Part shown: positions 50,867 to 55,607 of the stretch, piece by piece
Position numbering within the stretch: the first letter of the stretch is position 1
Layout of the letters: the number at the start of each line of letters is the position of its first letter
From: Ostreococcus lucimarinus
Taxonomy: Eukaryota
DNA length: 64,000 nt
Strand: one strand, 5' to 3'
Assembly (NCBI GenBank): GCA_000092065.1
Contig: CP000585.1
Position numbers and translations under genes: made by a program
The notes under the pieces: generated by a model
The model's input: only the letters and a program-made list of their open reading frames with translations
Told to the model about the DNA's origin: nothing
Database searches by the model: none

Positions 50867-51797
50867 ATGGCGACGCCGGCGTCCACCGTCGCGGGCACGC
50901 GCGTGGTGAAGATCGGGGACGCGTCGCTCGAGGTGCGGACGCGCGCGACGCGCGCGCGCGACGGCGCGACGGCGCGAACGCGCCAACGCGCGCGATGGGC
51001 GATGGGCGACTGACGGCGCGGTGACGACGACGCAGGTGCCCTCGTTCGTGAGCGCGTCGAACGTCGGGACGAGCGCGCCGCGAAAGAAGCATTTTCGTCA
51101 GCGCGCGCACTGTAATCCGTTGAACGATGGGTACTATTACGCGCCCGTGGGACCGTGGGAGATCGACTGGCGCGAGCACTACGAGGAATTTTTCGCGAAG
51201 CGGGACGGCGACGGCGACGCGGGAAGTCTGAAGATACGCTTCGCGGACGTCGGATGTGGGTTCGGAGGGATGCTCGTGCGACTGGCGGAGGTGTTTCCGG
51301 AAAAGTTGATGCTCGGGATGGAGATACGGGACAAGGTGAGCGAGTACGTGCGCGAGCGGTGCGCGGCGTTGCGCAAGGACCACCCGGGTAAGTACTGGAA
51401 CATTTCGTGCGTGCGGGCGAACGCGATGAAAAATTTGCCGCAATATTTCGAAAAGGGGCAATTGGAGAAGCTCTTCTTTTTGTTTCCCGATCCACACTTC
51501 AAGGCGGCGAATCATAGGCGAAGAATCGTGACGACGACGTTACTCGCCGAGTACGCGTACGTGCTCGCCGAGGGCGGAATTTTGTACACCATCACCGACG
51601 TCGAGGAACTCGGTAAATGGATGTCCGATCACATGTCCGCGCATCCAATGTTTGAACGCGTGCCCGAGGCTGAGCTCACGAAAGATCCCGTGGTGCCGCT
51701 CCTTTACACGGGCACCGAGGAAGGGCAAAAAGTTGAGCGAAACTCGGGTTCGACGTTTCTCAACGTCTTCAGGCGCGTCGCCAACCCGAACCATTAG
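50867..51797 (+). CDS. TRM8: tRNA (guanine-N7)-methyltransferase TRM8/METTL1 with two exons: 50867..50932 and 51036..51797.
   Basis: Exon 2 reads VPSFVSASNVGTSAPRKKHFRQRAHCNPLNDG...FADVGCGFGGMLVRLAEVFPEKLMLGMEIRDKVSEYV...FFLFPDPHFK...ITDVEELGKWM.... Human METTL1 reads ...KRYYRQRAHSNP...FADIGCGYGGLLVEL...FFLFPDPHFK. The track start at 51021 is GTG. The proposed exon 1 is MATPASTVAGTRVVKIGDASLE, with donor GAG|GTGCGGACG, branch GACTGACGG and acceptor CGCAG. Confidence 0.75.
50933..51035 (+). other. Proposed intron of TRM8 (103 nt).
   Basis: GTGCGGACGCGCGCGACGCGCGCGCGCGACGGCGCGACGG...GGGCGACTGACGGCGCGGTGACGACGACGCAG. Confidence 0.6.
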
Positions 51798-51893: not shown

Positions 51894-52217
51894 CTACGTC
51901 GCCTTTGCCTTCGCCGCCTGCGCTTGGTCGTACGAAAACCTTCGAAACAGTTGATACGACCCCGTCGCCGCCATCACCATGTTCACCGCCATCAAGTTGT
52001 AGTTCACGGGCGTGATGTCCAGCGCGTACTTGCACCAGATCAATCCCGTGAGCGTCACCGCGCTCTGCTGCGGGACGCTGAGCAATTCGGGCGGGCGCGA
52101 GAAATCCTTCACGTTCGCCGCGGTGATCCCCCATTTCATCGTCGGCGCCCAGAAGAAGATGGTTTTAGGGCCCGCGGGGTGGTTCCAGAATGATCGCGCG
52201 CTCGCGGCGAACGACAT
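51894..52217 (-). CDS. MPC: Mitochondrial pyruvate carrier (MPC/UPF0041 family).
   Basis: FWNHPAGPKTIFFWAPTMKWGITAANVKDFSRPPELLSVPQQSAVTLTGLIWCKYALDITPVNYNLMAVNMVMAATGSYQLFR matches MPC. The ATG is at 52217 (MSFAASARS...). The track ORF start at 52424 overlaps the upstream DNMT CDS. Confidence 0.75.
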   Translation of the reverse strand: MSFAASARSFWNHPAGPKTIFFWAPTMKWGITAANVKDFSRPPELLSVPQQSAVTLTGLIWCKYALDITPVNYNLMAVNMVMAATGSYQLFRRFSYDQAQAAKAKAT

Positions 52218-52353
52218 GGCGAACGCGCCGCGGAATGCGTCGCGGCGGAAACCCCCTGAATGGACTTTTGCGCTGTGTTCCGAACACTGGCTACGTAGAG
52301 CTCGGATGAATGTCGTATCACATGGGTCGTGGTGAAAATCGTCGAGAAGGAAA

Positions 52354-54816
52354 CTAGAGTTTGAGCTGGATGGCGACGCCGGCGTCATCGCGTCGCATGG
52401 TTTTCGTGCAGAGAGGATTTTCATCGAGCGCCGCGTCGGCGGCGGTGTGAACGATGATTTTCGCCTTGAGCGCGGACGCGGCGTTGGCCTTCTTTGCCAA
52501 AGCGATATCCGAGTCGACGTTTGACGGGACGTATTGCGCTACCATGACGGATTCAGTCCACGGCTTGAAGTTCAAGTCGACGTCGCCGTCATCGTAATCG
52601 ACGCGAAACGAATACGTGTGCGGATCGAAGGCGGTAATCGTGCCAGAGTAAAACGCGTTGTCCCGCTGCCACAGCACCACTATCCTCTGGCCTACGGCTT
52701 TGTCCTTGCGAAGCGCTAGTGTGGCGCCGATTTGACCGTGTCTCGCGAGTTCTATGATCTTCATCTGTGCGCACTTTGATTTCATCTTAGAACGACCAGC
52801 CGCGAGCTCCGACTCCGTGCCGGACGAACGCCGCGATCTCGTCTGCGGTTTGCTATCGGCCATAGCCTTGTGCGCTTCGGTGACGCACACGTCACATTCG
52901 TAACATGGCGATGGATCGGTGAAGAGATGTGCGTTGTTACGCTGCACGATTGGGTTGACGGGAGCCTCTAAATTCCTCGCATTGCACCACGCCCGTGCCG
53001 ACTCGACTGACTGCGTAAATTTCGCCTTTGAAGAAAACACAGGTTGTTTCATCGCTTCGCCGTAAAATTTGTCGAACGGATAAACTTCCGACGCTTTAAC
53101 CCATGCGAAGGATCTGCGATCGTCGAAAAAGATCACTAAACGATGATCCTCGGTGAACTTGGGGCTGAAAGCTGCAACACGTGCGCCCTCAGGGATAACG
53201 GCGTGATCCCGAAGCGGATGGAGCGCGACGCATGGCCAGTACATGGTCTTTCCTCGCACAGCTCCTTTCCATTTCACCCACGAGCACTCGCCGTGTGTCG
53301 TCATGCCATGTTCGTCTAAGTCGTTTTCGTTGTTTTCGTCTCGATGTCTCTTTTCCTTTGCAGCCTCTGTTTCTTCGCTCTCCCCCTCGTCTTCATCCGA
53401 ATCGTCGTCGTACTCATTGGCAGCTTGTTCGTCGTCTTCGGCGTCAATGTCTTCTAAAATGTCAATCTTAGACTTCTTTGATGGCGACGGCAGGGTCACT
53501 TGTGTCGAGTCACGCTTGACGTCTAACGCCGCGAGAATCGTCGAGTCAATGTTCTCGTGCGCGAGCTCGAGTCTCCGCAAGTAGCCTTCTCGAAGTTCGT
53601 ACCGCACGGGTTTGTTCTTTGTGAATTCAAGAAAATCGCCGAGCGGTGTGAAACCGCGAATGAGTGGAAACTCTGAAACTTCGTTCGGCGCGCGTTGTCG
53701 ACCTGTCCATTTCGGATCGCCGTTCACGTTGAGCATGTTGTAAGCGGCGAGCGGCCATGCCTTTGAAGATCGATCGCGCGTCGCTGGTCCCGGACACGGC
53801 TTTTCGAATGGCGTCGCCAGCGCATCGTAGGTAAATTTCACGTTGTACGGGCATTTCAACTGCTCGCCAAGCCACCGGCTTTGTGGGACGCTGCACGCCA
53901 GACCTAAGAGACTAAATCTTTTCATCGTTTGTAAATCCGTGTCGAACACCGGCGCTCGTTCGTTGGGACGCATGAGCGGATAGCAGGGTTCCGTATAACC
54001 CGGAGGAAATCCCATCAATCGTTCGGCGTCTTCTATCGCCAACATTGACAACTCAGCCTTTTGCTTTCCGATTTGGGTCGCGACACATGTACGACGTCCG
54101 TTGCTCGTCGTGAAGCAGTGCATGATATCGCAACACGGCGCTCGACGCTTCTCCCCGAGATCTATCGACGCCGAAAACATCTTTGTCGGTACTCGCGGTG
54201 GAGTGATGAAGCACTCGTAACACTCGTTGTTCATTCCCAGCTGGACGCACTCTCCCGAACACATCGCGCTCTGCGACAATAACACGTCTCGGGGATCACC
54301 GTGCAAAGATGCGACGACGAAAACGCGTCGTCGCTTATGAGGCGTCCCAAAGGACAAAAGATCGACGACGCGATACGCCCATCTGTATCCGAGATTTTCC
54401 AATTCATTGACTACGTAATCGATCGCCGGTCTCTGTTCGCCGTCGCTGTGCCACTTCAACAACCCGACGACGTTCTCGAGCAACAGCCACGGCACCCGTC
54501 TCGCCTCGAGCAAGCGAAACACGTGCGAGACGGAACGCGTGGCGCCGCCGAGCTCGAGTCCGGGTCGCTTGAGATTCTCGCAGCTGCAGTCGTTGCACGG
54601 AAACCCAGCGACGACGCAGTCGATGTTTTCGAGCATGAACGGGAGCACCTCCGCCACGTCATTGAGCAGCGCGACGCCCGGAAAGCGCGCCGAGAGGACT
54701 TGCTTGCAGTGGGCGTCGCGCTCTACCATGAGCTCTATGCGGTGGCCGGCTTGCTGGAGACCGAGATCGAGGCCTCCGACTCCGGAGAATAGGGACGCCA
54801 CGCGAAGACTCACCAT
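52354..54816 (-). CDS. Cytosine-5 DNA methyltransferase (Dcm/Dnmt fold). The catalytic domain is N-terminal, followed by C-terminal PWWP-like and Tudor-like reader domains.
   Basis: Motif I LFSGVGGLDLGL, motif IV GFPCNDCS, motif VI ENVVGLL, motif VIII ...TPHKRRRVFVVA, motif X-like ERLMGFPPGYTEP. Then an acidic linker. PWWP-like GECSWVKWKGAVRGKTMYWPCVALHP...FAWVKASEVYPFD. Tudor-like GQRIVVLWQRDNAFYSGTITAFDPHTYSFRVDYDDGDVDLNF. The ATG at 54816 is verified. Confidence 0.8.
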   Translation of the reverse strand: MVSLRVASLFSGVGGLDLGLQQAGHRIELMVERDAHCKQVLSARFPGVALLNDVAEVLPFMLENIDCVVAGFPCNDCSCENLKRPGLELGGATRSVSHVFRLLEARRVPWLLLENVVGLLKWHSDGEQRPAIDYVVNELENLGYRWAYRVVDLLSFGTPHKRRRVFVVASLHGDPRDVLLSQSAMCSGECVQLGMNNECYECFITPPRVPTKMFSASIDLGEKRRAPCCDIMHCFTTSNGRRTCVATQIGKQKAELSMLAIEDAERLMGFPPGYTEPCYPLMRPNERAPVFDTDLQTMKRFSLLGLACSVPQSRWLGEQLKCPYNVKFTYDALATPFEKPCPGPATRDRSSKAWPLAAYNMLNVNGDPKWTGRQRAPNEVSEFPLIRGFTPLGDFLEFTKNKPVRYELREGYLRRLELAHENIDSTILAALDVKRDSTQVTLPSPSKKSKIDILEDIDAEDDEQAANEYDDDSDEDEGESEETEAAKEKRHRDENNENDLDEHGMTTHGECSWVKWKGAVRGKTMYWPCVALHPLRDHAVIPEGARVAAFSPKFTEDHRLVIFFDDRRSFAWVKASEVYPFDKFYGEAMKQPVFSSKAKFTQSVESARAWCNARNLEAPVNPIVQRNNAHLFTDPSPCYECDVCVTEAHKAMADSKPQTRSRRSSGTESELAAGRSKMKSKCAQMKIIELARHGQIGATLALRKDKAVGQRIVVLWQRDNAFYSGTITAFDPHTYSFRVDYDDGDVDLNFKPWTESVMVAQYVPSNVDSDIALAKKANAASALKAKIIVHTAADAALDENPLCTKTMRRDDAGVAIQLKL

Positions 54817-54976: not shown

Positions 54977-55607
54977 TTAATCTTGCTCGGAATCCTTCAA
55001 AATTTTGTTGTACAGCGTGGCTTCGTCGCATTCGACGCACTCGTCGATCTCCGCGTTGAGCGAGCAAAATAACTGTTCTCTCAAGATTTCCAAGTTCACG
55101 TCTTCGTACTTCTCCTGGCATCGCTCACCCCCGAGTCCGCGGTTGAAGTAACTGCGCCATCGTTTCAACAACACCACTCTCTGCGCGAGAATTCTCTGCG
55201 CGTGATCACTGCGCCCTTCGGCGAAGAGTTTCTTGATGAACTCGTCGCCTCGGTTCTTATACTCGCTCGCGGCGAAGTTGTACAACCACTTGTACTCCCC
55301 CTTCCCCGGCGACAAATCCGTCTCTTGCATCTGCGCCAGCGTCTCCTTGAGCGCTCGAAACGTAAAGTAGTTCATCAGCAAGCTGTCGACGTCGTTAAAA
55401 CTCTGTTCAGGCGCGCGCGCGTCGCGCATTCCGTCAGTCAATCGCTCGAAAAGTTTAAACTCGCGCACTCGCCATCGTCGAGACGTCGCCGCTACTCACG
55501 TCGCCGTACGCCCCGCCGAGGTCCCCGCGTCGAATGACATCGCGCGCGCGATGCCGCGCGACGCGTCGGGCGGCGAAAATCGGTGTCGCGCGCTTGACGC
55601 ACGACAT
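54977..55607 (-). CDS. RBCX: RbcX (Rubisco assembly chaperone) precursor with two exons: 55500..55607 and 54977..55402.
   Basis: Exon 2 SFNDVDSLLMNYFTFRALKETLAQMQETDLSPGKGEYKWLYNFAASEYKNRGDEFIKKLFAEGRSDHAQRILAQRVVLLKRW matches the RbcX core. The track start at 55468 is GTG. Proposed exon 1 is MSCVKRATPIFAARRVARHRARDVIRRGDLGGAYGD (transit-peptide-like), ending at donor GAC|GTGAGTAGC, with branch TTGACTGACGG and acceptor CTGAACAG, in frame. Confidence 0.7.
55403..55499 (-). other. Proposed intron of RbcX (97 nt).
   Basis: GTGAGTAGCGGCGACG...GATTGACTGACGGAATGCG...CCTGAACAG. Confidence 0.6.

Follow-up and report, generated by a model that had tools for sequence, protein, structure and literature searches.

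We describe here a gene of Ostreococcus lucimarinus whose product joins a bacterial Dcm-like C5-cytosine methyltransferase (MTase) module to two predicted chromatin-reading domains, a PWWP and a Tudor, placed behind it. The gene lies at 52354..54816 (minus strand) of a 64,000-nucleotide stretch of contig CP000585.1 (GenBank assembly GCA_000092065.1); this whole stretch is the window of our analysis, and all positions refer to it. The encoded protein exactly matches XP_001417930.1 / ABO96223.1, a 'predicted protein' of O. lucimarinus CCE9901 (exact-sequence look-up), and is a member of the clade published as ChloroDNMT or 'Chlorophyta DNMT6-like'. Its architecture is, in our judgment, probably best explained by a histone-mark-guided DNA methylase of this clade. 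The class is already named and published, i.e., it is distinct and uncharacterised, not unrecognised. Our analysis adds to it the prediction of a Tudor of the type that reads monomethylated lysine 4 of histone H3 (H3K4me1) and of an atypical PWWP, the recognition of eukaryote-specific cysteine motifs, and an estimate of the age of the three-domain order.

According to the list of open reading frames (ORFs), the coding sequence is complete and comprises 820 aa plus the stop codon; it starts with ATG, is intron-free and contains no internal stop. The encoded N-terminus, MVSLRVASLFSGVGG, represents the same start as that of the orthologues in the alignment. The automatic UniRef/UniProt name of XP_001417930.1 refers to the Tudor domain.

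The catalytic module and its bacterial Dcm-like relatives

The C5-cytosine MTase module covers aa 1-430 (53527..54816, minus strand) and was recognised by Pfam, TIGR00675, alignment to M.HhaI, Foldseek and BLASTP. Direct translation and a HMMER alignment to M.HhaI revealed all the motifs expected of such an enzyme in canonical order, namely motif I (SLFSGVGG, aa 8-15), motif IV (FPCN, whose catalytic cysteine is Cys74), motif VI (ENV, aa 114-116), motif VIII (aa 157-166, with HKRRR at aa 160-164), motif IX (DAERLMGFPPGYT, aa 263-275) and motif X (LLGLACSVP, aa 303-311; 53884-53910, minus strand), followed by an extension, AWPxAAYN ... PLGDFL, common to the bacterial relatives. A preliminary description of this DNA had named motifs I, IV (PCN), VI (ENV), VIII and X, and each of them was found. 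It had also confined catalysis to the N-terminal ~330 aa; the motifs it named do lie there, but the conserved module ends only at about aa 430, since homology to the bacterial enzymes spans aa 4-425. Glu114, Arg162 and Arg164 are invariant in the family alignment, Cys74 and the FxGxG of motif I are kept wherever the sequences cover those columns, and the MTase core of the structure model reaches predicted local distance difference test (pLDDT) values of 80-95. Judged by these features, the MTase appears to have a full catalytic apparatus.

Outside the algae, the protein is most closely related to bacterial Dcm-like C5-MTases about 450-470 aa long, some of which carry a fused T:G mismatch endonuclease, Vsr. 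These enzymes (e.g., P0074 or the Streptomyces protein P0085) are collinear with the algal protein across the catalytic module, including the extension behind motif X, and share with it the near-identical stretches VSHVFRLL, LLENV, ELE.LGY.WAYRVVD and DPRDVLLS; pairwise BLASTP against P0074 gave 35% identity over aa 4-425 (E 9e-59). Unlike the algal protein, they possess neither the Cys4 cluster, the linker and the PWWP nor the CGxCxxC motif and the Tudor presented below, and they carry PCQ and GNAV instead of PCN and GLAC. Comparison with solved structures returned E-values of 1e-11 for M.HhaI, 4e-8 for DNMT2, 3.6e-4 for DNMT3C (the best DNMT3) and 0.89 for the C5-MTase chain 9baq, with both M.HhaI and M.HaeIII scoring above DNMT2. 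In Foldseek searches the MTase region matched HaeIII, HhaI, DNMT2 and DNMT3, while DNMT1 and MET1 appeared as generic MTase-fold matches only (template modelling (TM) score 0.23-0.27, normalised by target). The catalytic domain is far closer to the bacterial Dcm-like enzymes (9e-59, pairwise BLASTP) than to DNMT3 (3.6e-4, against structures), and these values agree with the earlier suggestion that the protein stands apart from DNMT1, DNMT3 and DNMT5. A Foldseek search of the whole protein against the PDB was also considered for class assignment and was set aside, as HaeIII, HhaI, DNMT2, DNMT3 and DNMT1 score alike and do not discriminate.

Since the clade has been placed near DNMT6 and DNMT3 (PMC10538959), and since DNMT2, one of the better matches among the solved structures, and DNMT6 are both treated as RNA-associated (PMC12344493), the protein might methylate cytosine in RNA (tRNA), as does DNMT2 and, by a recent proposal, DNMT6; this would fit the label 'DNMT6-like'. 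We regard this as very improbable. DNMT2 and DNMT6 'consistently lack any companion domains' (PMC12344493), whereas a PWWP and a Tudor are present here; DNMT6 in the strict sense, known from diatoms and kinetoplastids, is a stand-alone MTase, and the 'DNMT6-like' clade is distinct from it. Moreover, the two bacterial DNA methylases outscore DNMT2, as noted above. Because the nearest relatives outside the algae are bacterial DNA enzymes, several with a fused Vsr, and because chromatin readers of a kind not found in DNMT2 or DNMT6 are attached to the module, we infer that the protein methylates DNA.

A Tudor domain of the RDM15/PDS5C type

The preliminary description had proposed a PWWP-like and a Tudor-like segment C-terminal to the MTase, and both were recovered by Pfam, by a family C-terminal profile and by Foldseek on an AlphaFold model of aa 501-820. 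This model was built with 12 family sequences and has a mean pLDDT of 71.5, rising to 76-89 in its two barrels.

The Tudor domain (aa 706-760; 52537..52701, minus strand) is of the RDM15/PDS5C type. Pfam PTM_DIR17_Tudor (PF21743) matches aa 720-747 with 28.9 bits, above its cut-off of 27.2 bits, and the family profile matches the Arabidopsis RDM15 Tudor (7DE9) with an E-value of 1.4e-10. The same structure, solved in complex with H3K4me1, is the best Foldseek match (TM 0.90 by target, root-mean-square deviation 0.8 Å, 56 columns, 30% identity); the Tudors of PHF1 and PHF19 match less well (TM 0.63-0.72). In the model, the five strands of the Tudor barrel lie at aa 711-759. RDM15 recognises H3K4me1 by a cage of Trp616, Tyr623 and Tyr641, whereas Asp643 and Asp645 bind the monomethyl-ammonium group and give the domain its selectivity for monomethyl-lysine; Glu647 and Gln654 hold H3R2 (PMC8184781). 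All five of the side chains that bind the methylated lysine are kept in the HMMER alignment, as W716, Y723, Y741, D743 and D745. Conservation was counted across 23 family sequences, 18-20 of which cover the domain: the position of W716 is Trp in 17/18, that of Y723 is Tyr or Phe in 20/20, that of Y741 is Tyr in 15/18, and D743 and D745 are each conserved in 17/18. At the H3R2 pocket, Glu647 aligns with D747 (Asp or Glu in 17/18), and the alignment ends before Gln654. The fold is thus nearly superimposable on that of the H3K4me1 reader RDM15/PDS5C, to which the Tudor of plant MSH6, also a reader of H3K4me1, is related, with an identical Trp/Tyr/Tyr cage and the two Asp; the differences are the exchange of Glu647 for Asp and the host protein, a DNA methylase here, as opposed to a cohesin regulator or a protein of mismatch repair. 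From the RDM15 residues that are kept, we predict that this Tudor recognises a lysine with few methyl groups, most likely H3K4me1.

The same type of Tudor also occurs in very long proteins retrieved by an exhaustive profile search, with up to 29 repeats (P0222, P0230, P0232, P0236 and P0245); P0245 combines five matched stretches with Cdc6/ORC-like AAA domains. Given its presence in multi-Tudor proteins such as P0245, this Tudor appears to be a widely reused module.

An atypical PWWP domain

The PWWP (aa 508-612; 52981..53295, minus strand) carries the motif variant M-Y-W-P. Pfam PWWP (PF00855) matches aa 521-610 with 23.9 bits, slightly under the gathering cut-off of 25.6 bits, and the family C-terminal profile matches the PWWPs of NSD2, MSH6, NSD3 and BRPF1 (E 0.009-0.06). 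In the Foldseek search of aa 501-820 against the PDB, the second-best match is the DNMT3B PWWP in complex with trimethylated lysine 36 of histone H3 (H3K36me3; 5CIU), which the model resembles, followed by the PWWPs of HDGF, BRPF1-3 and HRP2/3; these matches support a PWWP beta-barrel with its helical bundle. When the aromatic cage of DNMT3B (F236, W239, W263) was mapped by sequence alignment, not by coordinates, the positions of W527 (the W of 'YWP') and F563 proved conserved; the equivalent of F236 is T524, and this position is non-aromatic in 19/20 sequences, so that only two of the three cage aromatics are present. H3K36me3 reading by the PWWP is doubtful because this first aromatic is absent, and the main role of the domain may be DNA or nucleosome binding.

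The incomplete cage also bears on the kind of chromatin at which the protein would act. A silencing methylase would act on repressed chromatin, e.g., transposons, viral integrations or the outlier chromosomes, and would read a repressive or neutral mark instead of gene-body marks, e.g., monomethylated lysine 20 of histone H4 (H4K20me1) or an H3K27me- or H3K9me-type mark. Besides the PWWP cage, this is favoured by the RDM15 Tudor itself, which also binds H4K20me1, although 15-fold more weakly, and which belongs to a protein acting in RNA-directed DNA methylation of silenced loci (PMC8184781); in addition, eukaryotic 5-methylcytosine is broadly tied to the silencing of viral and transposon DNA (PMC12344493). 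Nevertheless, the two Asp that confer monomethyl selectivity are kept, D747 is acidic at the position of the H3R2-binding Glu, and the PWWP structurally most resembles readers of H3K36me3. Hence, we consider a silencing role unlikely.

Cysteine clusters, acidic linker and C-terminal tail

Two cysteine motifs set the eukaryotic proteins apart from their bacterial relatives. The first, a Cys4 cluster CSGECVQLGMNNECYEC (CxGxC...CxxC; C186, C190, C199, C202; 54211..54261, minus strand), is inserted behind motif VIII, where the variable (target-recognition) region begins, and its four cysteines are invariant in the 23-sequence alignment. A pattern scan of the retrieved sequences detected it in the majority of the eukaryotic members (P0001-P0073) but not in any of the bacterial ones (P0074-P0112); a Cys4 with altered spacing, missed by the pattern, was seen by eye in a trebouxiophyte. 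The region has low pLDDT and the model contains no metal; the cluster is probably a zinc knuckle. The second motif, CxxCxxC...C (C638, C641, C644, C682; 52771..52905, minus strand), lies between the PWWP and the Tudor. In the 23-sequence alignment C638, C644 and C682 hardly vary, and in the C-terminal alignment the positions equivalent to C641 and C682 do not vary at all. The motif, which is 'CGxCxxC' in most relatives and looks like one half of a CXXC zinc finger, was detected by the same scan in the majority of the eukaryotic members but in none of the bacterial relatives, and zinc binding by it is plausible. The Pfam scan of the protein gave no match for either cysteine region, and model confidence is low at both. 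In the Chlorella-type proteins P0055 and P0067, a second CxxCxxC copy is found near the C-terminus.

An acidic linker (aa 437-505; 53302..53508, minus strand), predicted to be disordered, separates the catalytic module from the PWWP, as the preliminary description had proposed: Asp and Glu make up 52% of aa 455-500, pLDDT is below 50 over aa 437-481 and 492-506, and both length and sequence vary among orthologues. At the other end, the tail motif TKTMRRDDAGVAIQLKL (aa 804-820; 52357..52407, minus strand; consensus TMRRDxxGxxV) is conserved among close, Ostreococcus-type orthologues, and model confidence is low there. That it might serve as an arginine-anchor-type nucleosome contact is pure speculation.

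The composition of the target-recognition region is relevant to another explanation, in which the protein is a domesticated restriction-modification methylase with a Dcm-derived, multi-base target, used for self-marking against prasinoviruses or as a strand or context signal for mismatch repair, and the readers act as a general tether. The module, its variable region included, is Dcm-like over the whole of aa 4-425 at the identity given above, and its bacterial relatives are often fused to Vsr. Mamiellales host large DNA viruses with many methylases. When IMG/VR was scanned with the alignment of the family, only three loci were recovered, and these match the MTase part only (33-44% identity); they are Dcm-like methylases (L002 5001-6017, L003 5001-6059, L004 5001-5483) on contigs of 17-61 kb, and they are as distant from the MTase module described here as the bacterial relatives are. 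The presence of such relatives on viral contigs fits the self-marking scenario, but they stand no nearer than the bacterial relatives and contain no readers. Moreover, the target-recognition region has been remodelled by the Cys4 insert, which most eukaryotic members carry and no bacterial one does, and the strict conservation of the methyl-lysine residues of the Tudor argues for the reading of a specific mark over generic tethering. On balance, a sequence-specific enzyme of this kind seems improbable to us, and we retain the histone-mark-guided methylase as the preferred explanation.

Family, distribution and published status

Two putative DNMTs of O. tauri with a PWWP 'at the C-terminal end' were described by Alvarez-Venegas and Avramova (2012; BMC Evol Biol, PMC3457860), who found them to be bacterial-like and convergent with metazoan DNMT3, with counterparts in Micromonas, Chlorella and ocean metagenomes. 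Funabiki et al. (2023; eLife, PMC10538959) named a clade 'Chlorophyta DNMT6-like', listed XP_001417930 as 'Other DNMT6-like' and placed it with sequences from Bathycoccus, Micromonas, Chlorella and Chlamydomonas; it is on this published tree, which contains the very protein, that our clade placement is based. The tree puts the clade apart from DNMT1, DNMT2, DNMT3/DRM, DNMT4, DNMT5 and DNMT6. The repertoire given there for O. lucimarinus consists of DNMT5 (XP_001417393) and the DNMT6-like proteins XP_001417930 and XP_001422099, with no DNMT1 or DNMT3 and with DNMT6 'ND'. A 2025 paper in MBE describes 'ChloroDNMT', 'often with a PWWP domain' (PMC12344493), which is apparently the same clade, and the gain of the PWWP is treated as independent in the published trees (PMC3457860, PMC12344493). 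Between these published proteins and ours there is no difference in kind, as green-algal spread, MTase-then-PWWP order and bacterial-like catalysis are shared. The suggestion that the protein could represent an unrecognised algal class consequently does not hold: XP_001417930.1 sits in a published clade, a C-terminal PWWP was described for two O. tauri DNMTs in 2012, and with the MTase-then-PWWP order already known for that clade, the novelty of the arrangement is largely lost. Our literature search on the clade did not find descriptions of a separate Tudor, of its RDM15-type character or of the cysteine motifs, nor of the two-aromatic PWWP cage, the three-domain order in trebouxiophytes and Klebsormidium, or the 35% identity to bacterial Dcm-like enzymes.

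In our homologue search, only green-algal proteins rank ahead of bacteria. The first tier consists of full-length proteins from marine metagenomes and O. mediterraneus (49-70% identity), the second of MTase+PWWP proteins of Cymbomonas, many trebouxiophytes and Klebsormidium, and the third of the bacterial Dcm-like enzymes, several of which are fused to Vsr. The named matches (Ostreococcus, Cymbomonas, Trebouxia, Myrmecia, Auxenochlorella, Chlorella, Botryococcus, Apatococcus, Symbiochloris and Klebsormidium) agree with a restriction of the clade to chlorophytes and charophytes. Pfam scans recovered the order MTase-PWWP-Tudor from trebouxiophytes and also from a group of Mamiellales paralogues about 1000 aa long, with sub-threshold scores for the Tudor. 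Since this order recurs in both and, by eye, in Klebsormidium, the tripartite design seems to be older than the chlorophyte/streptophyte split. In the Klebsormidium nitens protein P0061 (1039 aa), a PWWP-like and two Tudor-like segments are visible by eye; Pfam called neither PWWP nor Tudor in it at E <= 0.1, and in the first Tudor-like segment 'YAADE' replaces 'YDDGD', so that the two pocket Asp are not kept.

Many of the metagenome and transcriptome models P0015-P0026 start after motif IV or stop before the Tudor, and these short models are probably truncated or mis-called at introns or contig ends. With such truncation, domain counts in databases would understate the MTase-PWWP-Tudor architecture. 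Of the nine full-module matches scanned from the exhaustive profile search, five have DNA_methylase, while the other four, possibly truncated models, have reader domains only. This search identified no non-DNMT donor of the PWWP-to-Tudor module; the Tudor alone is widespread.

Genomic context

The DNMT gene is surrounded by housekeeping genes, namely those for a TrmB-like tRNA m7G methyltransferase (51021-51797, plus strand), a mitochondrial pyruvate carrier (MPC)-like protein (51894-52217, minus strand) and an RbcX-like protein (54977-55429, minus strand). The RbcX and MPC labels come from precomputed Pfam annotations of a matching contig, and the TrmB label comes from sequence reading only. 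The spacers between the DNMT gene and its neighbours measure 137-160 bp, as expected for the compact Ostreococcus genome, and an independent Logan contig carries the gene again with its neighbours unchanged.

The GC content of 52001-54000 (0.556) is the second-lowest among the 2-kb bins of the window, whose mean is 0.626. The GC content at third codon positions (GC3) of the gene is 0.655, at the low end of the range of 0.65-0.83 seen for the long ORFs of the window and no outlier, and within the gene it is lowest (0.54-0.58) in the segments encoding the acidic linker and the PWWP. A foreign composition was considered and dismissed as uninformative, as GC3 stays within the window range; the low values may stem from weak expression and not from a foreign origin. 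A viral or mobile origin was likewise rejected, given that the viral relatives recovered from IMG/VR are no nearer than the bacterial ones and have no readers, that the neighbours are housekeeping genes, and that GC3, though low, stays in the window range.

Discussion

The domain order found here is, in line with the preliminary description, opposite to that of DNMT3, in which PWWP and ADD precede the MTase, and Pfam and Foldseek revealed no ADD, BAH/RFD or SNF2 domain. The protein shares with DNMT3A/B the fusion of a C5-MTase to a PWWP, the Asn (not Gln) after the catalytic Cys and, likely, the logic of a histone reader directing a de novo enzyme to transcribed chromatin. The 'PCN' itself was tried as a DNMT3 signature and rejected: a pattern scan found N, Q, V, I, P or T after the Pro-Cys within the clade, and with such variation the residue is not diagnostic of DNMT3. 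Where DNMT3 carries an ADD, the algal protein has a Tudor and cysteine motifs, with no ADD/PHD match in Pfam. It also differs from DNMT1 and CMT, which have their RFD, BAH or chromodomains N-terminal to a C-terminal PCQ-type MTase; none of these domains was matched by Pfam here. DNMT5, an SNF2-coupled maintenance enzyme, is encoded in the same genome (XP_001417393) and probably contributes to the same methylation system, but it belongs to a different clade, and Pfam gave no SNF2/helicase match in the protein described here.

We propose the following mechanism. By analogy with M.HhaI, Cys74 would act as the nucleophile and Glu114 of the ENV motif would protonate N3, with motifs I and X holding S-adenosylmethionine. 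The ancestor would have been a bacterial Dcm-type enzyme, which may have gained the Cys4 insert after its entry into the green lineage. Behind the module, a putative chromatin-reading tail runs from the acidic linker through the PWWP and the CGxCxxC...C knuckle to the RDM15/PDS5C-type Tudor. The Tudor would dock on a low-methyl H3 lysine, for which H3K4me1 is our best guess, and the PWWP may contribute a contact with the nucleosome, with DNA or with H3K36me. Jointly, the readers would keep the MTase on marked chromatin, where nearby DNA would be methylated. A coupling of histone reading to methylation, as the preliminary description had suggested, is plausible on the basis of the domains present. 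Cryptococcus Dnmt5 is described in a preprint as having exquisite maintenance specificity (bioRxiv 10.1101/149385). As O. lucimarinus has no DNMT1 or DNMT3 and DNMT5 is maintenance-only where tested, the methylation that DNMT5 would propagate may be seeded de novo by XP_001417930 and its paralogue XP_001422099, which are the obvious candidates.

Several points weigh against this interpretation. For the clade as a whole, enzymatic activity, the marks read and a de novo role are predictions. Pfam DNA_methylase (PF00145; aa 5-173, E 7.6e-30) aligns with the N-terminal half of the catalytic domain only, and TIGR00675 (dcm) scores 99.8 bits, slightly below its cut-off of 100.65. The Asn of motif X is replaced by Leu (LLGLACSVP, versus L[VI]GNAVSVP in the bacterial relatives), a position held by L, R, N or D within the clade, and the PWWP cage is one aromatic short. 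Bacterial ancestry leaves open that the target is a longer specific sequence rather than CG. Furthermore, according to the homologue search, the clade extends to trebouxiophyte and Chlorella-type algae; these lineages have DNMT1/CMT, and a partnership with DNMT5 is therefore not general. Histone-mark maps for Ostreococcus were not found in our literature search.

The half-length Pfam match and the motif X substitution would also fit a catalytically dead regulatory subunit similar to DNMT3L, which would use its readers to recruit or stimulate DNMT5 or a paralogue. We give this little credence: Cys74, Glu114, Arg162, Arg164 and FxGxG are all present and conserved, active-type bacterial enzymes align well with the C-terminal half of the domain and its motifs IX and X, and DNMT3A, although active, likewise has no Asn in motif X.

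In Mamiellales, according to work of Huff and Zilberman from 2014, methylation reportedly resides largely in gene bodies and nucleosome linkers, which also speaks against the silencing role considered above. We tentatively suggest that ChloroDNMT may be a second, independently assembled 'DNMT3-like' solution, in which a captured Dcm acquired an H3K4me1-type Tudor, a PWWP and two zinc knuckles; it would perform de novo CG methylation of gene bodies and linkers, which would then be maintained by DNMT5 in Mamiellales or by DNMT1 in Chlorella-type algae. The architecture itself clearly illustrates convergent assembly, with a methylase of another catalytic ancestry than DNMT3 joined to a 'royal family' histone reader. 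The value of our analysis is that of a refinement and a hypothesis, not of the discovery of a class. For Mamiellales such as Ostreococcus, abundant marine algae with DNMT5 and neither DNMT1 nor DNMT3, the source of methylation establishment is a question to which the ChloroDNMT clade is the obvious candidate answer, and the predicted RDM15-type H3K4me1 reader, the atypical PWWP and the two eukaryote-only cysteine clusters make this question concrete. If true, the proposal would explain how methylation is established in algae that possess only DNMT5, and it would place a link between H3K4me1 and DNA methylation well before land plants.

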